64,000 bases of DNA from Shigella phage ESH35: the sequence record ON528745, one strand, 5' to 3'. Of the stretch, positions 1,875 through 53,154 are shown piece by piece. The translations under genes were made by a program, and so were the position numbers. Every line of letters starts with the position of its first letter. Positions within the stretch are counted from its first letter, which is position 1. The notes beneath the pieces are model-generated. The model worked only from the letters and a program-made list of their open reading frames with translations. It had not been told where the DNA came from and made no database searches.

Positions 1875-3688
1875 CAATTGAAAAAGAAATTGAAGGATTG
1901 ATTCATAAAACTAATAAAGACCTTTTGAACGAGAATGCTAATAAAGATTCTCGTGTTTTTCCAACTCAACGGGACCTTATGGCTGGTATTGTGTCTAAAC
2001 ACATTGCCAAAAATATGGTCCCGTCTTTTATTATGAAAGCGCATGAAAGCGGAATTATTCATTTCCATGATATTGATTATTCCCCTGCTCTTCCATTTAC
2101 TAATTGTTGTTTAGTAGATTTAAAAGGAATGCTTGAAAACGGATTTAAGCTAGGTAATGCACAGATTGAAACTCCTAAATCAATTGGAGTTGCTACTGCA
2201 ATTATGGCACAAATTACTGCGCAAGTTGCTTCTCACCAATACGGCGGAACGACTTTTGCGAATGTAGATAAAGTACTTTCTCCTTATGTTAAACGCACCT
2301 ATGCAAAACATATTGAGGATGCAGAAAAATGGCAAATCGCTGATGCGTTAAATTATGCTCAATCTAAAACAGAAAAAGATGTATACGATGCATTCCAAGC
2401 TTATGAATATGAAGTAAATACTCTCTTTAGTTCAAACGGACAGACTCCTTTTGTAACAATTACATTTGGTACGGGAACTGACTGGACTGAACGAATGATT
2501 CAGAAAGCAATTCTGAAAAATCGTATTAAAGGTCTCGGTCGTGATGGGATAACTCCTATTTTCCCTAAGCTTGTTATGTTCGTTGAAGAAGGTGTTAATC
2601 TTTATAAAGACGATCCGAACTATGATATTAAGCAGCTTGCTCTAGAGTGTGCAAGCAAAAGGATGTATCCTGATATTATTTCAGCTAAGAACAATAAAGC
2701 TATCACCGGCTCATCTATTCCTGTTTCTCCAATGGGTTGCCGCAGTTTCTTGAGTGCGTGGAAAGATTCAACCGGTAATGAAATTCTTGATGGACGTAAT
2801 AATCTTGGTGTTGTAACACTGAATCTTCCTCGTATTGCGTTGGATTCTTATATTGGAACACAGTTCAATGAACAGAAATTTACTGAATTGTTCAATGAGC
2901 GAATGGATTTATGTTTTGAAGCTTTGATGTGTAGAATTAGTTCCTTAAAAGGAGTTAAAGCGACTGTTGCTCCTATTCTTTATCAAGAAGGTGCATTCGG
3001 GGTTCGTCTTAAACCTGATGACGACATAATTGAGTTATTTAAAAACGGTAGAAGTTCAGTGTCTTTAGGATACATTGGTATTCATGAATTGAATATTCTT
3101 GTCGGTCGTGATATTGGACAAGAAATTTTAACTAAAATGAATGCTCGTCTTAAACAGTGGGCTGAAAGAACTGGGTTTGCTTTTAGTTTGTATTCGACTC
3201 CTGCTGAAAACCTTTGTTATCGCTTCTGTAAACTTGATACAGAAAAATATGGAAGTGTAAAAGATGTTACCGATAAAGGATGGTACACTAACAGTTTCCA
3301 TGTTTCAGTAGAAGAAAATATTACTCCGTTTGAAAAGATTTCTCGCGAAGCCCCATATCATTTCATTGCGACAGGTGGTCACATTTCTTATGTTGAACTT
3401 CCTGATATGAAAAATAACCTAAAAGGTCTTGAGGCTGTCTGGGATTATGCTGCACAACATTTAGATTATTTTGGTGTTAATATGCCAGTAGATAAATGTT
3501 TTACATGTGGAAGTACCCATGAAATGACTCCTACTGAAAACGGATTTGTTTGTTCTATTTGTGGAGAAACTGATCCTAAAAAGATGAACACAATAAGAAG
3601 AACATGTGGTTATTTGGGAAATCCGAACGAACGCGGATTTAATCTCGGCAAAAATAAAGAAATCATGCATAGGGTTAAGCACCAATGA
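1871..3688 (+). CDS. nrdD: anaerobic ribonucleoside-triphosphate reductase, uninterrupted
   Basis: 605 aa; C-terminal CxxC...CxxC zinc site and glycyl-radical region; ATGA overlap with gene 49. Confidence 0.95.
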   Translation: MTIEKEIEGLIHKTNKDLLNENANKDSRVFPTQRDLMAGIVSKHIAKNMVPSFIMKAHESGIIHFHDIDYSPALPFTNCCLVDLKGMLENGFKLGNAQIETPKSIGVATAIMAQITAQVASHQYGGTTFANVDKVLSPYVKRTYAKHIEDAEKWQIADALNYAQSKTEKDVYDAFQAYEYEVNTLFSSNGQTPFVTITFGTGTDWTERMIQKAILKNRIKGLGRDGITPIFPKLVMFVEEGVNLYKDDPNYDIKQLALECASKRMYPDIISAKNNKAITGSSIPVSPMGCRSFLSAWKDSTGNEILDGRNNLGVVTLNLPRIALDSYIGTQFNEQKFTELFNERMDLCFEALMCRISSLKGVKATVAPILYQEGAFGVRLKPDDDIIELFKNGRSSVSLGYIGIHELNILVGRDIGQEILTKMNARLKQWAERTGFAFSLYSTPAENLCYRFCKLDTEKYGSVKDVTDKGWYTNSFHVSVEENITPFEKISREAPYHFIATGGHISYVELPDMKNNLKGLEAVWDYAAQHLDYFGVNMPVDKCFTCGSTHEMTPTENGFVCSICGETDPKKMNTIRRTCGYLGNPNERGFNLGKNKEIMHRVKHQ

Positions 3689-11034: not shown

Positions 11035-12719
11035 AGAATTTTAAACTAAACCGAGTTAGGTATCAAAATATAATGTCAGTAGGTGGAAATCCTATTGACA
11101 TTCAATTAGATAAGGTTCAAAAAACTCTTATTACTGGACGAAATGGCGGTGGTAAGTCTACTATGTTAGAAGCCATCACATTTGGGCTTTTTGGCAAGCC
11201 ATTTCGTGATGTAAAGAAAGGTCAATTAATAAACAGCACAAATAAGAAAGAACTTTTAGTTGAACTGTGGATGGAATATGATGAGAAAAAGTACTATATC
11301 AAAAGAGGACAAAAACCAAACGTTTTCGAAATCACCGTTAACGGTACACGTCTTAATGAATCTGCCAGCAGTAAAGATTTCCAAGCAGAATTTGAACAGC
11401 TTATCGGAATGTCATATGCCAGTTTCAAGCAGATTGTTGTCCTTGGTACAGCAGGGTATACCCCTTTCATGGGTTTGTCGACCCCTGCACGAAGAAAGCT
11501 TGTGGAAGACCTGCTTGAGGTAGGAACATTAGCTGAAATGGATAAGCTTAATAAAGCACTAATACGTGAATTAAATTCACAAAACCAAGTGCTTGATGTT
11601 AAAAAAGATAGTATTATCCAACAAATTAAAATATATAATGATAACGTTGAACGCCAGAAAAAATTAACTGGTGACAACCTTACTCGTCTTCAAAATATGT
11701 ATGATGATTTGGCAAAAGAAGCTAGAACGCTAAAATCAGAAATAGAAGAAGCTAATGAAAGATTAGTTAATATTGTTTTAGACGAAGACCCGACTGATGC
11801 ATTTAATAAAATCGGTCAAGAAGCAGTTTTAATTAAATCAAAAATTGACTCGTATAATAAAGTCATTAATATGTATCATGAAGGTGGATTATGTCCAACC
11901 TGCTTGTCACAATTAAGTTCCGGTGATAAAGTTGTTTCTAAAATTAAAGATAAAGTTTCTGAATGTACGCATTCGTTTGAACAGCTTTCAACACATCGTG
12001 ATAATTTAAAAGTTCTTGTTGATGAATACCGAGATAATATTAAAACCCAGCAGTCGTTGGCAAATGATATTCGCAATAAAAAGCAATCTCTAATCACGAC
12101 GGTAGATAAAGCTAAAAAAGTTAAAGCAGCTATAGAAAAAGCATCTTCTGAGTTTATTGACCATGCTGATGAAATAGCATTGCTTCAAGAAGAACTTGAT
12201 AAAATTGTTAAGACAAAAACTAATTTAGTAATGGAAAAATACCACCGAGGAATTTTGACTGATATGCTCAAAGATTCTGGTATTAAAGGTGCTATTATTA
12301 AAAAGTACATTCCATTATTTAATAAGCAGATTAACCATTATCTTAAAATAATGGAAGCGGATTATGTGTTTACATTAGATGAAGAATTTAATGAGACAAT
12401 TAAATCCCGTGGTCGTGAAGATTTTAGTTATGCTTCATTCAGTCAAGGTGAAAAAGCGCGAATTGATATTGCTCTTTTATTTACTTGGCGTGATATTGCT
12501 GAAAAAGTTTCAGGTGTTAAAATAAGTTGTTTATTTCTTGATGAAGTGTATGACGGTGCATTTGATGCTGAAGGCATTAAAAATGTAGCTAAAATTTTAG
12601 ATGGTTTGAAGGATACCAACTTCTTCATAATTTCGCATAAAGACCATGATCCGCAGGATTATGGACAGCATATTAAAATGGAAAAAGTTGGTAGATTTAG
12701 TGTTGCCACTATTAATTAA
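11031..12719 (+). CDS. 46: recombination endonuclease subunit (Rad50/SbcC-like ATPase)
   Basis: 562 aa, GTG start; Walker A GRNGGGKST, CPTC zinc hook, long coiled coil, C-terminal Walker B. Confidence 0.92.
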   Translation: MKNFKLNRVRYQNIMSVGGNPIDIQLDKVQKTLITGRNGGGKSTMLEAITFGLFGKPFRDVKKGQLINSTNKKELLVELWMEYDEKKYYIKRGQKPNVFEITVNGTRLNESASSKDFQAEFEQLIGMSYASFKQIVVLGTAGYTPFMGLSTPARRKLVEDLLEVGTLAEMDKLNKALIRELNSQNQVLDVKKDSIIQQIKIYNDNVERQKKLTGDNLTRLQNMYDDLAKEARTLKSEIEEANERLVNIVLDEDPTDAFNKIGQEAVLIKSKIDSYNKVINMYHEGGLCPTCLSQLSSGDKVVSKIKDKVSECTHSFEQLSTHRDNLKVLVDEYRDNIKTQQSLANDIRNKKQSLITTVDKAKKVKAAIEKASSEFIDHADEIALLQEELDKIVKTKTNLVMEKYHRGILTDMLKDSGIKGAIIKKYIPLFNKQINHYLKIMEADYVFTLDEEFNETIKSRGREDFSYASFSQGEKARIDIALLFTWRDIAEKVSGVKISCLFLDEVYDGAFDAEGIKNVAKILDGLKDTNFFIISHKDHDPQDYGQHIKMEKVGRFSVATIN

Positions 12720-13429
12720 TGTTTGTGCTTACAGTTATCATTATGCCACCTTGATAAATTTCCGAAAGTGGTAACTTTACCACAATGGACGCAAGTACCA
12801 GTCTTTTCAGTTTTCTTGCGTCCATTTGGATTTTTCTTGCAGAAATTTCTATGCGCTGCGATAACGCATTTCTTGCCTATCATTCCGCAGAATTCGCAGG
12901 ATGTTTCTTCAAGAATGATTGCTTTAAGCCCGTTTGAGATATTATTTCTGTGTTCTTTAGACATCGGTGGTCTAACTTTAGGATTAGGGTGATTCGGGCA
13001 GTTATCAAAATGCCATCGATTCATATTCCCGCTTAATCCGGACTTACCGCAATGTGGACAAGTTAGTCTTGCTTTATTAGCTACTGCATCAGACATTTTC
13101 TTTCGTGTCTCCTGGGAGAATTCTTTATTCTTTTCTATTTCCCAGAGTTTACGACGAATCCAACCGAAAGTTTTATTGTTACGTTTAGCGTATTTCGTGG
13201 AAACTGTCATCATGTTAGCAGCATAGACTAATTTTGGTTCAGAAGGATAAATTTTTACTAAAAGTTGATGAGCTACATAGTGCTCTTCCGGTGTTAAATC
13301 TACTAAGTTTGAAGCATCATCGCTGCCATTTAAACAGCGTGGTATAATGTGATGAGATTCAGTATAGCAATCAAGTTTTCGAGATTTAGCATTAGAGATT
13401 AACTTTTCATAAATTAGTTTATAATTCAT
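12716..13429 (-). mobile_element. free-standing HNH homing endonuclease with three C-x2-C...H...C zinc-knuckle repeats
   Basis: N-terminal HNH motif (SHHIIPR...NLVDLTPEEH); antisense to neighbours; 4-bp tail-to-tail overlap with gene 46. Confidence 0.75.
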
Positions 13430-40284: not shown

Positions 40285-42105
40285 GTGATGATTAAGAATG
40301 AAATTAAAATTCTGAGCGATATTGAACATATCAAAAAGCGTAGCGGCATGTATATTGGCTCTTCTGCTAATGAAATGCATGAGCGCTTTCTGTTTGGTAA
40401 ATGGGAAAGTGTTCAGTATGTACCTGGTCTTGTTAAGCTTATTGATGAAATTATCGATAACTCAGTAGATGAAGGTATTCGTACTAAGTTTAAATTCGCG
40501 AATAAAATTAATGTTACCATTAAAGATAATCAGGTAACAGTTGAAGATAACGGTCGCGGTATTCCACAAGCGATGGTTAAAACACCTACTGGTGAAGAAA
40601 TTCCTGGTCCTGTTGCTGCCTGGACTATTCCAAAAGCAGGTGGTAACTTCGGTGATGATAAAGAACGCGTCACCGGTGGTATGAATGGTGTTGGTTCTAG
40701 TTTGACAAACATTTTTTCTGTGATGTTTGTCGGTGAAACTGGCGATGGTCAAAATAATATTGTAGTTCGTTGTTCAAATGGTATGGAAAATAAATCCTGG
40801 GAAACTATTCCTGGAAAATGGAAAGGAACTCGTGTTACTTTCATTCCTGATTTTATGTCATTTGAAACTAATGAGCTGTCTCAGGTTTATCTTGACATTA
40901 CACTGGACCGTCTCCAGACACTTGCTGTCGTTTATCCTGATATTCAATTTACTTTTAATGGTAAAAAGGTTCAGGGCAATTTTAAGAAATATGCACGACA
41001 GTATGATGAACATGCTATTGTTCAAGAACAAGAAAATTGTTCTATTGCGGTTGGTCGTTCACCGGATGGTTTTCGTCAATTAACTTACGTGAATAACATT
41101 CATACTAAGAATGGTGGCCATCACATTGACTGTGTTATGGATGATATTTGCGAAGACCTTATTCCACAAATCAAACGTAAATTCAAAATTGATGTAACTA
41201 AAGCACGCGTTAAAGAATGTTTGACTATCGTTATGTTTGTTCGTGATATGAAAAACATGCGATTTGATTCTCAAACTAAAGAGCGTTTGACTTCTCCATT
41301 TGGCGAAATTCGTAGTCATATTCAACTTGATGCTAAAAAGATTTCACGCGCTATTCTAAATAATGAAGCAATTCTGATGCCGATTATTGAAGCTGCGTTG
41401 GCTCGTAAATTGGCGGCAGAAAAAGCAGCAGAAACTAAAGCAGCTAAAAAGGCTTCTAAAGCTAAGGTTCATAAACATATCAAAGCGAATCTTTGTGGTA
41501 AAGATGCTGACACTACTCTTTTCTTGACTGAGGGTGATTCTGCTATCGGATATCTTATTGATGTTCGTGATAAAGAACTTCATGGTGGTTATCCATTGCG
41601 TGGTAAAGTTCTTAACAGCTGGGGTATGTCATATGCTGATATGCTTAAAAACAAAGAACTATTTGATATTTGCGCAATCACTGGATTAGTTCTTGGTGAA
41701 AAAGCTGAAAACTTGAATTATCATAATATTGCTATTATGACCGATGCTGACCATGATGGTCTAGGAAGCATTTATCCTTCTCTGCTCGGGTTTTTTAGTA
41801 ATTGGCCAGAATTGTTTGAGCAAGGACGAATTCGCTTTGTCAAAACTCCTGTAATCATCGCTCAGGTCGGTAAAAAACAAGAATGGTTTTATACAATCGC
41901 TGAATATGAGAGTGCCAAAGATGCTCTACCTAAACATAGCATCCGTTATATTAAAGGACTTGGCTCTTTGGAAAAATCTGAATATCGTGAGATGATTCAA
42001 AATCCAGCATATGATGTTGTTAAACTTCCTGAGAACTGGAAAGAGCTTTTTGAAATGCTCATGGGAGATAATGCTGACCTTCGCAAAGAATGGATGAGCC
42101 AGTAG
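40285..42105 (+). CDS. 39: DNA topoisomerase II large (ATPase) subunit, unsplit
   Basis: 606 aa from GTG (605 from ATG 40288); GHKL ATPase motifs. Confidence 0.93.
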   Translation: MMIKNEIKILSDIEHIKKRSGMYIGSSANEMHERFLFGKWESVQYVPGLVKLIDEIIDNSVDEGIRTKFKFANKINVTIKDNQVTVEDNGRGIPQAMVKTPTGEEIPGPVAAWTIPKAGGNFGDDKERVTGGMNGVGSSLTNIFSVMFVGETGDGQNNIVVRCSNGMENKSWETIPGKWKGTRVTFIPDFMSFETNELSQVYLDITLDRLQTLAVVYPDIQFTFNGKKVQGNFKKYARQYDEHAIVQEQENCSIAVGRSPDGFRQLTYVNNIHTKNGGHHIDCVMDDICEDLIPQIKRKFKIDVTKARVKECLTIVMFVRDMKNMRFDSQTKERLTSPFGEIRSHIQLDAKKISRAILNNEAILMPIIEAALARKLAAEKAAETKAAKKASKAKVHKHIKANLCGKDADTTLFLTEGDSAIGYLIDVRDKELHGGYPLRGKVLNSWGMSYADMLKNKELFDICAITGLVLGEKAENLNYHNIAIMTDADHDGLGSIYPSLLGFFSNWPELFEQGRIRFVKTPVIIAQVGKKQEWFYTIAEYESAKDALPKHSIRYIKGLGSLEKSEYREMIQNPAYDVVKLPENWKELFEMLMGDNADLRKEWMSQ

Positions 42106-42373: not shown

Positions 42374-44551
42374 ATGATTATCACCACTGAAAAAGAAACA
42401 ATTCTTGGTAATGGTTCTAAATCAAAAGCATTTAGCATCACAGCATCTCCTAAAGTATTTAAAATTCTGTCATCTGATTTGTATACAAACAAAATTCGCG
42501 CAGTTGTTCGTGAATTGATTACCAACATGATTGATGCCCATGCTCTCAATGGAAATCCTGAAAAATTTATCATTCAAGTTCCTGGACGTTTAGATCCACG
42601 ATTTGTTTGTCGAGATTTTGGTCCGGGTATGAGTGATTTTGATATTCAGGGTGATGATAATTCTCCTGGGTTATATAATTCATACTTCAGTTCATCTAAG
42701 GCTGAATCTAACGATTTCATTGGCGGATTTGGTTTAGGTTCTAAATCTCCGTTTAGTTATACTGATACGTTTAGTATTACTTCGTATCATAAAGGTGAAA
42801 TTCGTGGTTATGTAGCTTACATGGATGGTGATGGTCCACAAATTAAACCTACATTCGTGAAAGAAATGGGTCCAGATGATAAAACTGGTATTGAAATCGT
42901 AGTTCCAGTTGAAGAAAAAGACTTTAGAAACTTTGCTTATGAAGTTTCTTATATCATGCGACCGTTCAAAGATTTGGCTATTATTAATGGTCTTGACCGC
43001 GAAATTGATTATTTTCCGGATTTTGATGACTATTACGGTGTAAATCCAGAAAGATACTGGCCTGATCGTGGTGGATTATATGCTATCTATGGTGGTATTG
43101 TTTATCCTATCGATGGTGTTATTAGAGACCGTAACTGGCTAAGCATTCGCAATGAAGTGAATTACATTAAATTTCCAATGGGTTCACTTGATATTGCTCC
43201 ATCTCGCGAGGCTCTTTCACTGGATGATCGTACTCGTAAAAATATTATTGAACGAGTTAAAGAACTCAGTGAGAAAGCATTTAATGAAGATGTAAAACGA
43301 TTTAAAGAATCTACATCTCCCCGTCACACATATCGTGAATTGATGAAGATGGGGTATTCTGCTCGAGATTATATGATTAGTAATTCAGTCAAATTCACGA
43401 CTAAAAATCTGTCATATAAAAAGATGCAGAGCATGTTTGAACCTGACAGTAAGTTATGTAATGCAGGCGTGGTGTATGAAGTAAATCTTGACCCTCGACT
43501 GAAACGCATTAAGCAAAGTCATGAAACATCAGCCGTTGCGTCAAGTTATCGTCTGTTTGGTATTAATACAACAAAAATTAATATCGTTATTGATAATATT
43601 AAAAATCGTGTTAATATTGTCCGTGGATTAGCACATGCGCTAGATGATAGTGAATTTAATAACACTTTAAATATTCATCACAATGAGCGTCTTCTGTTTA
43701 TTAATCCGGAAGTAGAATCGCAGATTGATTTACTACCTGATATTATGGCAATGTTTGAAAGTGATGAAGTTAACATTCATTATTTGTCAGAAATTGAAGC
43801 TTTAGTTAAAAGCTATATTCCAAAGGTAGTTAAAAGTAAAGCTCCTCGTCCTAAAGCTGCTACAGCATTTAAGTTTGAAATTAAAGATGGGCGTTGGGAA
43901 AAAGAGGAATTATTTACACTTACGTCAGAAGCAGATGAAATTACTGGTTATGTAGCGTATATGCATCGTTCTGATATTTTCTCTATGGATGGTACTACAT
44001 CACTTTGTCATCCATCTATGAATATTTTGATTCGTATGGCTAATCTTATTGGCATTAATGAATTTTATGTTATTCGTCCGCTTTTACAGAAAAAGGTAAA
44101 AGAACTCGGTCAGTGCCAATGTATTTTTGAAGCTTTGCGTGATTTATATGTAGATGCTTTTGATGATGTAGATTATGATAAGTATGTAGGTTATTCAAGT
44201 TCAGCTCAACGATATATTGATAAAATTATCAAGTATCCTGAACTAGATTTTATGATGAAGTACTTCAGTACAGATGAAGTTTCTGAAGAATATACACGAC
44301 TTGGTAATATGGTTAGTTCATTACGCGGTGTGTATTTCAATGGTGGAAAAGATACCATCGGTCATGATATCTGGACAGTAACTAATCTCTTTGATGAATT
44401 ATCACGTAATGCTTCAAAAAATAGTGATAAAATGGTTGCTGAGTTTACCAAGAAATTCCGTATTGTTTCCGACTTCATCGGATATCGCAACTCTTTAAGT
44501 GATGATGAAGTTTCCCAAATCGCTAAAACTATGAAGGCCCTTGCGGCCTAA
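42374..44551 (+). CDS. rIIA: rIIA membrane-associated protein
   Basis: 725 aa as in T4; N-terminal GHKL-like ATPase motif. Confidence 0.92.
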
Positions 44552-44562
44552 TAAGGAAAATT

Positions 44563-45501
44563 ATGTACAATATTAAATGCCTGACCAAAAACGAACAAGC
44601 TGAAATTGTTAAGCTGTATTCAAGTGGTAATTACACCCAACAGGAATTGGCTGATTGGCAAGGTGTATCGGTTGACACAATTCGTCGTGTTTTGAAAAAT
44701 GCTGAAGAAGCTAAACGCTCTAAAGTTACTATTAGCGGTGATATTACAATTAAAGTTAATAGCGATGCAGTTATTGCTCCAGTTGCTAAATCTGACATTA
44801 TTTGGAATGCATCTAAAAAATTCATTTCAATTACTGTTGACGGTGTAACTTATAACGCAACTCCTAATACTCATTCAAACTTCCAGGAAATTCTTAATCT
44901 GCTTGTAGCAGATAAGTTGGAAGAAGCGGCACAAAAAATTAATGTTCGTCGCGCTGTTGAAAAATATATTTCCGGCGATGTTCGAATTGAAGGCGGAAGC
45001 TTGTTCTATCAAAATATCGAATTACGGTCTGGTTTAGTTGATCGTATTCTCGATTCGATGGAAAAAGGTGAAAACTTTGAATTTTATTTTCCGTTCTTGG
45101 AAAATCTGCTGGAAAACCCAAGCCAGAAAGCGGTATCTCGACTCTTTGATTTCTTGGTAGCAAACGATATTGAAATTACAGAAGATGGTTACTTCTATGC
45201 TTGGAAAGTAGTTCGTGACAACTACTTTGACTGTCACTCAAACACCTTTGATAACAGTCCTGGTAAAGTAGTTAAAATGCCGCGTACTCGTGTGAATGAC
45301 GATGATACACAAACTTGTTCTCGTGGTCTGCATGTGTGTTCTAAATCTTATATTCGTCACTTTGGCAGTTCAACCAGCCGAGTTGTAAAAGTTAAAGTAC
45401 ATCCACGTGATGTAGTATCAATTCCGATTGATTACAACGATGCTAAAATGCGTACCTGCCAATACGAAGTAGTTGAAGACGTTACTGAACAATTTAAATA
45501 A
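44563..45501 (+). CDS. rIIB: rIIB protein
   Basis: 312 aa as in T4, immediately after rIIA. Confidence 0.88.
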   Translation: MYNIKCLTKNEQAEIVKLYSSGNYTQQELADWQGVSVDTIRRVLKNAEEAKRSKVTISGDITIKVNSDAVIAPVAKSDIIWNASKKFISITVDGVTYNATPNTHSNFQEILNLLVADKLEEAAQKINVRRAVEKYISGDVRIEGGSLFYQNIELRSGLVDRILDSMEKGENFEFYFPFLENLLENPSQKAVSRLFDFLVANDIEITEDGYFYAWKVVRDNYFDCHSNTFDNSPGKVVKMPRTRVNDDDTQTCSRGLHVCSKSYIRHFGSSTSRVVKVKVHPRDVVSIPIDYNDAKMRTCQYEVVEDVTEQFK

Positions 45502-45514
45502 GGGCTTCGGCCCT
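45501..45514 (+). terminator. UUCG-tetraloop hairpin after rIIB
   Basis: AGGGC-ttcg-GCCCT; weak U tract. Confidence 0.4.
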
Positions 45515-45533
45515 TATCATATTAAGGAAAATT

Positions 45534-45728
45534 ATGTTAGGTTATCAAGCACGAGTAAAAGAAGAATACGATCAATTAATGCTCAAAATTAATGCACTGA
45601 GCAAATTTTTAGAAAGCGCAAAGTTTCTAACAGTTAACGCAGTTGAGCAAGAACTGCTACTTTCGCAGTTCATCTCAATGAAATCTTATGCTGAGTGTCT
45701 AGAGAAAAGAATCGCACAATTCAAATAA
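45534..45728 (+). CDS. hypothetical protein (64 aa)
   Basis: ATG with AAGGAAA upstream. Confidence 0.4.
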   Translation: MLGYQARVKEEYDQLMLKINALSKFLESAKFLTVNAVEQELLLSQFISMKSYAECLEKRIAQFK

Positions 45729-45731
45729 AAT

Positions 45732-45755
45732 AAGGGCTTCGGCCCTTTTGTTTTA
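45732..45755 (+). terminator. rho-independent terminator
   Basis: AAGGGC-ttcg-GCCCTT then TTTGTTTT. Confidence 0.7.
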
Positions 45756-45791
45756 AGAGAAATTATGATTCCGACATAAAGGAAAGTTTAA

Positions 45792-46349
45792 ATGCAGAAA
45801 ACGAATCCGGGTTTACAGAGACTATTTCAGATTCCGACATTTACCCTATCGAACAGTGACTTGACTAGTGAAATGAAGGTCAAAATTGCTGATACAGCAA
45901 GATACTCTTTAAAACAAAACCCGAACCAGGATAAAGCAGAAGTTATCGAAAGATGCCGTATCGCTGTGTACGCAGAGTTTTTTGTGGCAGATTGGCTAAG
46001 CGGATATGTCAATAAAGGCCAAGAAAATGTCGATGATCCGTACACGTATGCATGGGATGTTTTAGCGCATCCAAAATATTGCGGGCTTCGTGTAGAAGTC
46101 AAAACACATCAAACTGACTCGCGTTGGATTTCGGTAACAACGGGATGCAGCGGAGAGTATCCATATGGTTCTGGAATAAATTTAGGGCCCATTCTAAATC
46201 ATCAAGTCGCTGACTGTATAATTATATTCAACACTAAAGAAATTCATCCAGGTGTCATCCAGTACACTCCGAAGTTCATCGGTGACAGAGAAGACCTTCG
46301 TAAGGTTGTAAGAAAAAGCAACTACAACGGATGGTATCTTTCCATTTAA
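45792..46349 (+). CDS. denB: endonuclease IV-like (DenB position)
   Basis: 185 aa as in T4, after rIIB. Confidence 0.65.
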   Translation: MQKTNPGLQRLFQIPTFTLSNSDLTSEMKVKIADTARYSLKQNPNQDKAEVIERCRIAVYAEFFVADWLSGYVNKGQENVDDPYTYAWDVLAHPKYCGLRVEVKTHQTDSRWISVTTGCSGEYPYGSGINLGPILNHQVADCIIIFNTKEIHPGVIQYTPKFIGDREDLRKVVRKSNYNGWYLSI

Positions 46350-46368
46350 AAATTTTTTCACAAAACGG

Positions 46369-46397
46369 TTTACATACCACAAGGACCGTGGTACTAT
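46369..46397 (+). promoter_or_regulatory. T4-type early promoter cassette
   Basis: TTTACA, 17 bp, TGgTACTAT; modules shared with 46875 and 48881. Confidence 0.6.
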
Positions 46398-46425
46398 TAC
46401 CCTATCAACTACGGAGGAGCGGAAA

Positions 46426-46689
46426 ATGAAATTTAAATTTTATTACGCTAAACATAAAATAACTGATGAGTTTGTGTCAGTTGAATATTCTAGCGATGAT
46501 GAAGGCATGATTTATACTCGCTTAGGATTATCGCATTGGGAGTCTGATCAGCCTTATTTTTCAACTCCCGAAGAAATTACACGCTTAGTTAATGGTCATA
46601 TGAATGACCACTGGAATGTAATTCTTTCAGATAGTCTTAAAGCGGCTATTAATAGTAATGAAATGAAAATCGCTGAGATTGAGCTATGA
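46426..46689 (+). CDS. hypothetical acidic protein (87 aa)
   Basis: GGAGGAG SD. Confidence 0.45.
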   Translation: MKFKFYYAKHKITDEFVSVEYSSDDEGMIYTRLGLSHWESDQPYFSTPEEITRLVNGHMNDHWNVILSDSLKAAINSNEMKIAEIEL

Positions 46690-46867
46690 GTTCATTATGG
46701 TGGTGTTTCGTTTGGTTAATTAGTATTCCATTAATTTGTTTAACATTTACTTTTGTGATGAGGTTATTATGAAAATTTTGAATTCTGTACTTATTGCTTG
46801 TGCGTGGTGGGTTGCACAGGTTTCAGCAGTGGTGATTGGTATTCACATTTATTACGAATATTTTTAA
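46686..46867 (+). other. two overlapping micro-ORFs (28 aa and 32 aa) encoding hydrophobic peptides
   Basis: ATG ORFs 46686..46772 and 46769..46867; ATGA coupling. Confidence 0.2.
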
Positions 46868-46874
46868 AAAGTTG

Positions 46875-46903
46875 TTTACAAGACTGTTCTTCCGTGGTAC
46901 TAT
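46875..46903 (+). promoter_or_regulatory. T4-type early promoter cassette
   Basis: TTTACA, 17 bp, TGgTACTAT. Confidence 0.6.
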
Positions 46904-46931
46904 TACCCTATCAACTACGGAGGAACAGAAA

Positions 46932-47045
46932 ATGAAAAAGATTGTTAAAGCTATATGGAATGTAGTTATAATACTAATAGTTTTGAGTATATTCCCAATC
47001 GTTTTAATGATTGATGTATTAAACGTTTACTTTGGATTTATGTGA
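46932..47045 (+). CDS. small membrane peptide (37 aa)
   Basis: GGAGGA SD, single transmembrane segment. Confidence 0.3.
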   Translation: MKKIVKAIWNVVIILIVLSIFPIVLMIDVLNVYFGFM

Positions 47046-47052
47046 GGAAAAT

Positions 47053-47211
47053 ATGAATATTGCAAAATTATTAGGAGTTATTTCATTTATTTGTTGGATA
47101 GTAGCATGTGTTTTAACTATCTGTATTGATGCTAGCAGTGTGTTTTCACAAGCTTTAGCCCAGGGTATGTGTGCATATTTAACATTTGTGTTGTTATCTA
47201 CTAATGATTAA
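47053..47211 (+). CDS. small membrane protein (52 aa)
   Basis: GAGGA SD, two hydrophobic segments. Confidence 0.3.
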   Translation: MNIAKLLGVISFICWIVACVLTICIDASSVFSQALAQGMCAYLTFVLLSTND

Positions 47212-47344
47212 GAAAATCTTGGGCTATTCACTAGCCCTTGCTACTTTATTGGTAGCACTATATTATGGAGTAATGTTCGGATTAATTCAAGTCGTGCTTT
47301 TCATTTCTGATGTTATTATGGCACTACATTCACTAGTATGGTAA
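47204..47344 (+). CDS. small membrane protein (46 aa)
   Basis: overlapping start; hydrophobic. Confidence 0.25.
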   Translation: MIKKILGYSLALATLLVALYYGVMFGLIQVVLFISDVIMALHSLVW

Positions 47345-47348
47345 ATTT

Positions 47349-48677
47349 ATGCAACTGAATAATCGCGATTTAAAAAGTATCATTGATAATGAAGCACTGG
47401 CTTATGCTATGTACACGGTTGAAAATCGTGCTATCCCAAATATGATTGACGGATTTAAGCCAGTTCAACGATTTGTTATTGCTCGAGCTCTTGATTTGGC
47501 ACGAGGAAATAAAGATAAGTTTCACAAACTCGCTTCTATCGCAGGTGGTGTAGCGGACCTTGGATATCATCATGGCGAAAACTCTGCACAAGACGCAGGT
47601 GCTTTGATGGCTAACACTTGGAATAATAACTTTCCTCTGTTAGATGGTCAAGGAAACTTCGGTTCTCGTACCGTTCAAAAAGCAGCGGCAAGTCGTTATA
47701 TTTTTGCTCGTGTAAGTAAAAATTTCTATAACGTATATAAAGATACTGAGTATGCTCCGGTACATCAAGATAAAGAACACATTCCGCCTGCTTTCTATTT
47801 GCCTATTATTCCTACTGTTCTTCTTAATGGCGTTTCCGGTATTGCAACTGGTTATGCAACTTACATTCTTCCTCATAGTGTTTCTTCTGTCAAGAAAGCT
47901 GTACTGCAAGCTCTTCAAGGAAAGAAAGTAACTAAACCGAAGGTAGAATTCCCAGAATTTCGTGGTGAAGTTGTTGAAATTGATGGGCAGTATGAAATTC
48001 GTGGAACATATAAGTTTACTTCACGAACTCAAATGCATATCACTGAGATTCCATATAAGTATGATCGTGAAACTTATGTGAGTAAAATCTTAGACCCACT
48101 TGAAGATAAAGGCTTCATTACATGGGATGATGCTTGCGGTGAGCACGGTTTTGGATTCAAAGTTAAATTCCGCAAAGAATATTCTTTGAGCGATAATGAA
48201 GAAGAACGCCATGCAAAAATTATGAAAGACTTCGGGTTGATTGAGCGTCGTTCTCAGAATATTACGGTTATTAATGAGAAAGGAAAACTACAAGTTTACG
48301 ATAACGTAGTTGATTTAATTAAAGATTTCGTTGAAGTTCGTAAAACTTATGTCCAAAAACGAATTGATAACAAAATTAAAGAAACTGAGTCAGCTTTTCG
48401 TTTAGCCTTTGCCAAGGCACATTTCATTAAGAAAGTAATTTCAGGTGAAATTATTGTACAGGGTAAAACTCGTAAAGAACTGACCGAAGAACTTTCGAAA
48501 ATCGATATGTATTCTTCTTATGTTGATAAATTAGTTGGAATGAATATTTTTCATATGACTTCCGACGAAGCAAAGAAACTTGCTGAAGAAGCTAAAGCTA
48601 AAAAAGAAGAAAACGAATATTGGAAAACTACTGATGTAGTTACTGAATACACCAAAGATTTAGAGGAAATCAAATGA
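47349..48677 (+). CDS. 52: DNA topoisomerase II medium (GyrA-like) subunit
   Basis: 442 aa as in T4. Confidence 0.92.
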   Translation: MQLNNRDLKSIIDNEALAYAMYTVENRAIPNMIDGFKPVQRFVIARALDLARGNKDKFHKLASIAGGVADLGYHHGENSAQDAGALMANTWNNNFPLLDGQGNFGSRTVQKAAASRYIFARVSKNFYNVYKDTEYAPVHQDKEHIPPAFYLPIIPTVLLNGVSGIATGYATYILPHSVSSVKKAVLQALQGKKVTKPKVEFPEFRGEVVEIDGQYEIRGTYKFTSRTQMHITEIPYKYDRETYVSKILDPLEDKGFITWDDACGEHGFGFKVKFRKEYSLSDNEEERHAKIMKDFGLIERRSQNITVINEKGKLQVYDNVVDLIKDFVEVRKTYVQKRIDNKIKETESAFRLAFAKAHFIKKVISGEIIVQGKTRKELTEELSKIDMYSSYVDKLVGMNIFHMTSDEAKKLAEEAKAKKEENEYWKTTDVVTEYTKDLEEIK

Positions 48678-52365: not shown

Positions 52366-53142
52366 TTATACTCTTGGACCATATATTGCTCCAACGTTTT
52401 GCCATGTCGGTGTAGACCCTATGACGGCATAACCAGCAGCTCCGCCATCGTATTCAGATCCTTGACCACGAATATTACATCTACCTCCTGCGGAGCCAAC
52501 TTCGCCACCGCCACCGCCGCTATAGATACCGTTCACAGACCCTGCGCCAGGCGCAGAAATAGTACCAGCAGTTGCTCCTGATTGCATATCAATAGATCCG
52601 CCCGGTGCGCCAAACGGACGCCCGCCGCCGCCGCCAAAAGTCAATCTCATTTGTGAAAAAGGAGAATAATATCCGCCGCCGCCACCGCCGCCACCTCCAG
52701 CAATAGCTCCGCCATTATTAATTCTTAGTCTCCCACCAATATCGTTTTGAATACAATGACCTCCAGCTGAGCCAGGACTATTGCTACCGCCATTACCGCC
52801 ACGTCCATACATCGTTACGCCGTGTATATTCAACTGAACATATTCATTCGGTGTATCTCCATACATGAAGAATAAAGGAACATCTTTAGAATATGATACT
52901 AAATCTCCAGTGATATTAAACACTATAGGTGCACTACCTGCCTCAAAACATCTATCTCGGAACCATTGACCATTGAAGTTATGGTCTGCTCCAAGTGTGT
53001 GAATTACTTCAACAGATCGACCTATCATATTACTCATCCAAAACGGAATTCCCATTCTCAATCTCTGTGCGGCACCACCCATCCAAGGATCTCCAGTCTG
53101 TACCCTTGCAGACCATCCTACCCACGGTCCTGTTACTGCCAT
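52366..53142 (-). CDS. 38: tail-fibre adhesin gp38, T2-type with glycine-rich motifs
   Basis: 258 aa from ATG after GGAGG SD; poly-Gly runs between variable segments. Confidence 0.85.
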
Positions 53143-53154
53143 ATAAACCTCCAA

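Follow-up and report, generated by a model that had tools for sequence, protein, structure and literature searches.

Probable loss of ndd by deletion between 16-bp direct repeats in the D region of a Tequatrovirus, and the T4 small genes that flank the deletion

The nucleoid-disruption gene ndd is missing between denB and gene 52 in a 64,000-nucleotide stretch of Shigella phage ESH35 (sequence record ON528745), the whole of which is called the window here. From alignment with related loci, the gene was very probably lost through a deletion of about 1.1 kb (1,135 bp relative to the relative KMB39) between two 16-bp direct repeats. Five short hydrophobic open reading frames (ORFs) lie in the remaining segment. 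By their sequences, they are the catalogued T4 genes ndd.6, ndd.5, ndd.4, ac and 52.1. The main value of this analysis lies in a correction: the micro-proteins belong to known T4 genes, and a simple deletion would explain the missing ndd.

The window is a segment of a Tequatrovirus (T4-like) genome, with 95–99% identity to hundreds of Tequatrovirus genomes in the denB-52 region. Over the window's final 25 kb, the best identity to a single record is 96%, and the phage is therefore a distinct isolate, not T4 itself. The stretch from denB to gene 52 corresponds to the familiar, non-essential "D region", which belongs to the hyperplastic regions of T4-type phages. All features described below are on the plus strand. 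Upstream of the region lie rIIA (42374–44551, 725 aa), rIIB (44563–45501, 312 aa) and denB.1 (45534–45728, 64 aa). The left anchor is denB (45792–46349, 185 aa), the endonuclease IV gene, which matches phrog_1360 with an E value of 1e-97 and is 100% identical to denB of KMB39. The right anchor is gene 52 (47349–48677, 442 aa), annotated in relatives as the medium subunit of topoisomerase II. An earlier sequence-only reading of this DNA had placed an 87-aa acidic ORF and five hydrophobic ORFs of 28, 32, 37, 52 and 46 aa between the anchors, and had seen no ndd-sized gene after denB. All of these ORFs are indeed present. Ndd is a protein of about 150 aa (Pfam PF06591), and no homologue was found in the 64-kb window, where a tblastn search with KMB39 Ndd gave a best E value of 0.78.

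The denB-52 interval spans about 2.8 kb in close relatives versus 1.7 kb in the window. Alignment with KMB39 by BLAST yields two pieces. Window positions 45700–47057 correspond to positions 501–1856 of the KMB39 locus at 99.4% identity, and positions 47042–47400 correspond to 2976–3334 at 98.3% identity. The two pieces overlap on exactly 16 nt (47042–47057), and the sequence of this overlap is GTGAGGAAAATATGAA. KMB39 contains GTGAGGAAAATATGAA twice, 1,135 bp apart, at the stop of ndd.4 with the start of ndd.3 and at the stop of stp with the start of ac. Two copies of the exact 16-mer, 1118–1135 bp apart, occur in 13 of 15 relatives, and the other two have one copy. When seven relatives are aligned, the repeat is found at ndd.4/ndd.3 in all seven and exactly at stp/ac in six, with NiC89 being one base off. 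The window has GTGAGGAAAATATGAA only once, as is characteristic of a deletion between direct repeats, and the single copy comprises the stop codon of ndd.4, a Shine-Dalgarno motif and the start codon of ac. The genes gone in comparison with the relatives are ndd.3, ndd.2, ndd.1, ndd and stp. The sequence-only reading was thus right that ndd is missing after denB, but it overlooked the probable cause, a deletion at the 16-bp repeat, and the other genes lost along with ndd.

In the proposed mechanism, ndd is absent because one event of recombination or replication slippage between the 16-bp repeats excised about 1.1 kb. Unequal exchange or a replication slip would take place between the GTGAGGAAAATATGAA copies at the ndd.4|ndd.3 and stp|ac boundaries. 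The excision product would have the stop codon of ndd.4 joined to the ribosome-binding site and start of ac, with neither gene damaged. As for the direction of the change, 494 phage records contain the deleted block as one unbroken stretch. Ndd homologues were found at 1085 places in 1080 phage records, almost always once per record; besides Tequatrovirus, these include phages of Klebsiella, Acinetobacter and Erwinia. The 21 related loci examined all have ndd, always in one place, between ndd.1 and stp/ac. The wide occurrence of ndd, the contiguity of the block and the constancy of its position indicate that the deletion is derived and not ancestral.

The deletion junction was absent from 50,697 INPHARED phage records, IMG/VR, JGI metagenomes and GTDB genomes. 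In look-ups of exact proteins, gp37 gave no record. The junction was also absent from the contigs shown that encode an identical RIIA (6 places) or an identical 87-aa protein (8 places), all of which carry ndd. Such a singleton is what would be expected of an artefact or a passage-derived mutant. The deletion might then represent an assembly collapse, a minority variant turned consensus, or a mutation that arose during laboratory propagation. However, a 16-bp repeat is shorter than the usual assembly k-mers, which makes collapse during assembly unlikely. The flanks are moreover colinear and 98–99% identical to those of relatives, with all reading frames preserved. T4 itself is known to lose segments flanked by short direct repeats, as in the mapping of rII deletions. 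Overall, an artefactual or laboratory origin is judged to be unlikely.

Alternatively, ndd (and stp) may have moved out of the 64-kb window without being lost. About 100 kb of the roughly 167-kb genome lies outside the window, and shuffling of cassettes does occur in the hyperplastic regions of T4-type phages (PMC2839356, PMC4122927). Nevertheless, the junction is simply the scar of an excision from one repeat to the other, Ndd is essentially single-copy among phage records, and the position of ndd is fixed in the related loci. We consider relocation very improbable and favor the deletion. The private ndd.3-stp deletion is the only new element at the locus; it is a new natural allele produced by a known type of event, probably spontaneous.

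The small genes next to the deletion can be matched one by one with those of T4. The T4T record lists, in order, denB, ndd.6 (28 aa), ndd.5 (32), ndd.4 (37), ndd.3 (65), ndd.2 (36), ndd.1 (71), ndd, stp (26), ac (51), 52.1 (46) and 52, and the annotation of FelixPlatter contains the same set with the 87-aa ORF added. In the window, ndd.6 (46686–46772, 28 aa), ndd.5 (46769–46867, 32 aa), ndd.4 (46932–47045, 37 aa), ac (47053–47211, 52 aa) and 52.1 (47204–47344, 46 aa) keep this order and their place between the two anchors, denB and gene 52, all on the early strand, as seen in the alignment with seven relatives and in the T4T and FelixPlatter annotations. Each product gives a full-length match to a PHROG family of its own, with E values between 3e-17 and 4e-26: phrog_8851 for ndd.6 (3e-17), phrog_5011 for ndd.5 (4e-26), phrog_3098 for ndd.4 (3e-21), phrog_2501 for ac (4e-25) and phrog_3595 for 52.1. 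The 52.1 product also matches the Pfam family DUF7396 (E 3.5e-23). Precomputed Pfam labels on related contigs identify ndd.4 as PF26889 Phage_T4_Y16N and ac as Phage_T4_Ac. None of the five proteins differs from its T4T counterpart by more than one residue or one codon; for instance, Ac of the window is T4T Ac with one extra residue, and it is 100% identical to Ac of KMB39.

With these matches, the suggestion that the micro-ORFs had been overlooked or are novel does not stand, as they are named in T4T and FelixPlatter and have PHROG and Pfam families. The accompanying remark that they fall below normal annotation cutoffs is fair in practice: among 14 loci with gene calls, not one includes ndd.6, and the annotations of KMB39 and NiC89 lack several of these small genes.

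The sequences of these ORFs also behave as coding sequences. The conservation comparison included the window and 21 related loci (22 sequences). Four of the genes, ndd.6, ndd.5, ndd.4 and 52.1, are intact in all 22 and do not vary in length. An intact ac of unchanged length is found in 17 sequences; 2 sequences have an ac that lacks one codon, and 3 have another ac allele in its place. By minimal counts, 37 synonymous and 19 non-synonymous substitutions are observed, compared with about 21% synonymous expected from random change (binomial p ~7e-13). Pairwise pN/pS is 0–0.21 for ndd.6, ndd.5, ac and 52.1, and 0.07 for denB. The excess is evident in ndd.5 alone (12 synonymous, 4 non-synonymous) and is not seen in ndd.4 alone (5 synonymous, 6 non-synonymous), whose non-synonymous variants in an eight-sequence comparison are conservative I/V/A swaps. 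The 87-aa ORF overlaps ndd.6 by an ATGA start/stop at 46686, as does ndd.6 with ndd.5 at 46769; the end of ac and the start of 52.1 overlap by 8 nt. Shine-Dalgarno motifs are visible 5′ of the 87-aa ORF, ndd.4 and ac. Such tight packing is as expected if the ORFs are translationally coupled.

It may be argued that ORFs this short are spacer or leader DNA that stays open by chance, the more so as ndd.4 shows 5 synonymous to 6 non-synonymous changes. In the literature, no proteomic evidence was found for the ORFs, nor were ribosome profiling, translation or localisation data for T4 small proteins or micro-ORFs. Chance reading frames would hardly account, however, for four ORFs intact throughout and ac retained in 19 sequences, for the strong overall synonymous excess, for full-length family matches or for coupled starts and stops; in addition, the deletion of ac and its expression each give a published acriflavine phenotype. 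A non-coding origin is thus extremely unlikely, and the five short ORFs are, on the evidence of their sequences, genuine genes that were already known.

The 87-aa ORF (46426–46689) is of a different kind. As an accessory gene, it occupies a variable slot; it matches phrog_2390 (E 1e-46) and encodes an acidic, soluble product with 15 D/E and 8 K/R residues, a net charge of −7 and a GRAVY of −0.51. It is absent from T4T, and its homologues are confined to T4-like phages. Against Pfam, only a sub-threshold match to DUF1376 was obtained. AlphaFold2 predicts a small alpha/beta fold with a pLDDT of 86, with only two of the five models reaching a pLDDT of 70. The model gave no match in the PDB with an E value below 0.4, and in BFVD it matched only uncharacterised proteins of T4-like phages, e.g. 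PE37, IME537, Merlin and 44RR2.8t. We speculate that this early, acidic protein from a variable slot may be a host-interaction or anti-defence factor, for which such a profile is typical.

The two early-promoter cassettes of the sequence-only reading were recovered in the promoter scan as two strong early-type sites, at 46369–46397 (promoter 1) and 46875–46903 (promoter 2). Both read TTTACA-17-TACTAT with an upstream TG, and both fit TTTACW-N17-TAYWAT, the consensus of the PeSL early promoters of T4 and PST (PMC4122927). A 46-nt direct repeat (46386–46431 and 46892–46937) covers the −10 box, leader, Shine-Dalgarno and start codon. Its second copy is 96% identical to the first, and a 31-nt core is exact in both copies, where none is expected by chance. 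No terminator-like stem-loop was found adjoining promoter 1 or promoter 2. The nearest plus-strand hairpins flank denB.1, one at about 45500–45515, which was seen only as a repeat copy, and one at 45732–45747. Since the adjoining stem-loop that marks a PeSL is lacking, the sites are called PeSL-type promoters and not full PeSL members.

T4T has an empty slot 3′ of promoter 1; in most relatives the slot is occupied by the 87-aa ORF, and in ESh34 and L019 by unrelated sequence. The variation, as judged from the aligned loci, is in keeping with modular shuffling. An exchange of ndd.4/ndd.5 was given as an example in the PeSL study of 2014 (PMC4122927). Excision mediated by PeSL cassettes was also considered for the loss of ndd and was rejected, as the breakpoints lie in the 16-bp repeat at the ribosome-binding site and not in the promoter cassettes. 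An RNA element in the locus was likewise rejected: no Rfam match was found in 45400–47500, and the leaders and the deletion junction fold no better than shuffled sequence.

In the proposed expression scheme, host sigma-70 RNA polymerase would start at both PeSL-type promoters right after infection and produce polycistronic mRNAs. Promoter 1 would serve the 87-aa ORF, ndd.6 and ndd.5, and promoter 2 would serve ndd.4, ac, 52.1 and possibly gene 52. On the plus strand from promoter 2 to gene 52, there is no terminator-like hairpin except a weak one inside 52.1. A hairpin and a spacer upstream of ndd were lost with the deleted block. With these gone, more transcription may continue into ac, 52.1 and 52. 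The packed small ORFs would be read by translational coupling, and their short hydrophobic products would enter the inner membrane. The five products have GRAVY values of 1.26–1.87, and their best 19-residue hydropathy windows score 2.2–3.1. Each is predicted to contain at least one membrane-spanning helix, and insertion into the inner membrane is most likely.

Among these products, Ac is the one with a recorded phenotype. It is annotated in T4 as a predicted membrane protein, and ac is the acridine-sensitivity gene. Deletion of ac from T4 gives acriflavine resistance, expression of ac sensitises E. coli, and a block of AcrAB-TolC has been proposed (bioRxiv 10.1101/2025.06.30.662393), a proposal repeated in PMC13250531. 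In the window, Ac would similarly sensitise infected cells to acridines, probably by blocking efflux through AcrAB-TolC. A broader effect of the region is known from the T4 mutant saDelta9, in which 52.1, ac, stp, ndd, ndd.1-ndd.6 and denB are removed. The phage-induced stimulation of phospholipid synthesis is abolished in this mutant, and its yield is about 50% of wild type (PMC6071114). At least one D-region gene would accordingly be needed for the rise in phospholipid synthesis, which has been shown only for T4 deletion mutants. The idea that the micro-proteins may be membrane-acting host modulators agrees with the record of Ac and with the saDelta9 effect.

A further step would be to regard the micro-ORFs as unannotated and unrecognised host modulators that act at the membrane and are naturally used instead of Ndd. 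The short ORFs are hydrophobic and would be expressed early, and many annotation pipelines miss them, all of which would suit this proposal. It is opposed by the identity of all five as named T4 genes with database families. Each of the 21 related loci examined also contains them in addition to ndd, with ac represented by another allele in three, which argues that they do not substitute for ndd. We give such a replacement next to no credence.

The consequences of the deletion can be predicted from the functions of the lost genes. Stp reportedly activates the PrrC anticodon nuclease. The annotation notes of T4T and FelixPlatter also describe Stp as a PrrC activator. The phage is predicted to be viable, with the host nucleoid not moved to the membrane and, without Stp, with PrrC anticodon nuclease not activated. 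As ac is intact, sensitivity to acridines should remain. Cloned Ndd is toxic to E. coli (PMC6893735). The joint deletion of denB and ndd raises plasmid release, and T4GT7 transduces efficiently only with both deletions (PMC5241400). The loss of ndd bears on transduction and plasmid release, and hence on the safety of phage therapy, with the effect having been shown for the combined denB and ndd deletion.

Nearly every relative has the repeat pair, yet about 494 genomes keep the block between the copies. This suggests that selection in nature acts to retain ndd, stp and their neighbors, even though the phage can do without them in the laboratory. Whether the loss in this phage brought an advantage is a separate matter. 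It may be an adaptive natural variant that escapes a defence sensing Stp (PrrC-type) or one sensing Ndd or nucleoid disruption, or one in which the altered fate of host DNA favors transduction or plasmid release. Nothing relevant was found in the literature on Ndd as a defence trigger, and we regard an adaptive origin as rather unlikely. If it were true, this phage would be the first Tequatrovirus from the wild for which independence of nucleoid disruption had been shown. A phage that carries Delta(ndd.3-stp) naturally and retains denB, ac and 52.1 would be of use in separating the D-region genes behind nucleoid disruption, PrrC activation and the effect on phospholipid synthesis.

Compared with the T4 "D region", which extends from rIIB/denB to gene 52, the gene order, flanks and proteins of the window are the same. 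The window adds the 87-aa ORF that is absent from T4, and lacks ndd.3, ndd.2, ndd.1, ndd and stp. The event resembles the short-direct-repeat deletions reported in the rII genes of T4, in which one repeat is likewise kept at the junction, while the parental arrangement has two, one on each side of the lost segment. The difference is that the repeats here are functional translation-initiation regions, and the outcome would be a clean operon fusion. As in the promoter-early stem-loop (PeSL) cassettes (Arbiol 2010, PMC2839356; Comeau 2014, PMC4122927), the promoters of the window fit the consensus, are repeated and adjoin variable ORFs. Unlike those cassettes, they have no detected adjacent stem-loop. 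Finally, the laboratory T4 deletions saDelta9, rIIDeltaDD2 and NB5060 (the last in T4GT7, which is without denB and ndd; PMC5241400) are also viable losses of non-essential D-region genes including ndd. The laboratory deletions are larger (about 3.4 kb in saDelta9) and also remove denB, and some remove ac or rIIB. The deletion in the window, by comparison, is about 1.1 kb long, spares denB, ac and 52.1, and is found in a Tequatrovirus other than T4.

A repeat search of the window returned a 46-nt direct repeat whose two copies (46386–46431 and 46892–46937) are 96% identical. Each copy spans the −10 box, the leader, the ribosome-binding site and the start codon, and between them the copies bracket a module made of the 87-aa acidic ORF, ndd.6 and ndd.5. 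The repeat pair is well suited to another PeSL-style excision, which would remove the 87-aa ORF/ndd.6/ndd.5 module. In the locus alignment this variant of the repeat is common to the window and FelixPlatter, and the first copy is different in the remaining aligned relatives.

The slot immediately 3′ of early promoter 1 (46426–46689 in the window) is polymorphic among the relatives. Most of them carry the 87-aa acidic ORF there, the slot of T4T is without an ORF, and unrelated sequence, which gene calling in L019 reads as a 101-aa gene, occupies it in ESh34 and in contig L019. The related loci also vary at the ac position. In the locus alignment, a divergent Ac allele replaces the T4-type one in NiC89, and contigs L016 and L018 are likewise without the T4-type allele. 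Both alleles stand in tandem in Sf22, L011 and L019, each preceded by a similar ribosome-binding site.

Gene calling at the denB–52 locus is uneven across the 14 gene-called contigs (L008–L021). While ndd.6 is called in none of the 14, ndd.4, stp and 52.1 are called in some of them only. The local Pfam scan did not detect ndd.4 and Ac, yet the precomputed labels give PF26889 and PF26944 for these proteins.

Upstream of denB, two identical copies of a GC-rich hairpin, AAGGGCTTCGGCCCTT, lie on either side of denB.1 (45500–45515 and 45732–45747), and the copy at 45732–45747 was scored as terminator-like in the hairpin scan. The denB.1 product matches Pfam PF21825, a family labeled crAss001_48 in the local Pfam copy but "Sequestin" in the precomputed labels. 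denB.1 looks like another small cassette.

Elsewhere in the window, a 237-aa ORF (12716–13429) runs on the minus strand, opposite to the surrounding early genes, between neighbors tentatively identified as gene 46 and rpbA. Its family hit is phrog_655, a group of homing endonucleases (E = 2e-68), and the Pfam search gave no match for it. This ORF is probably a mobile endonuclease insertion.

In T4, one gene is divided into 39 and 60, and the form of gp38 is much shorter. Because a single 606-aa ORF (40285–42105) lies where gene 39 is presumably to be expected, gene 39 appears to be unsplit here, and gp38 (52366–53154), with Pfam GP38 and Gp38_N matches, is of the adhesin type and 262 aa long.
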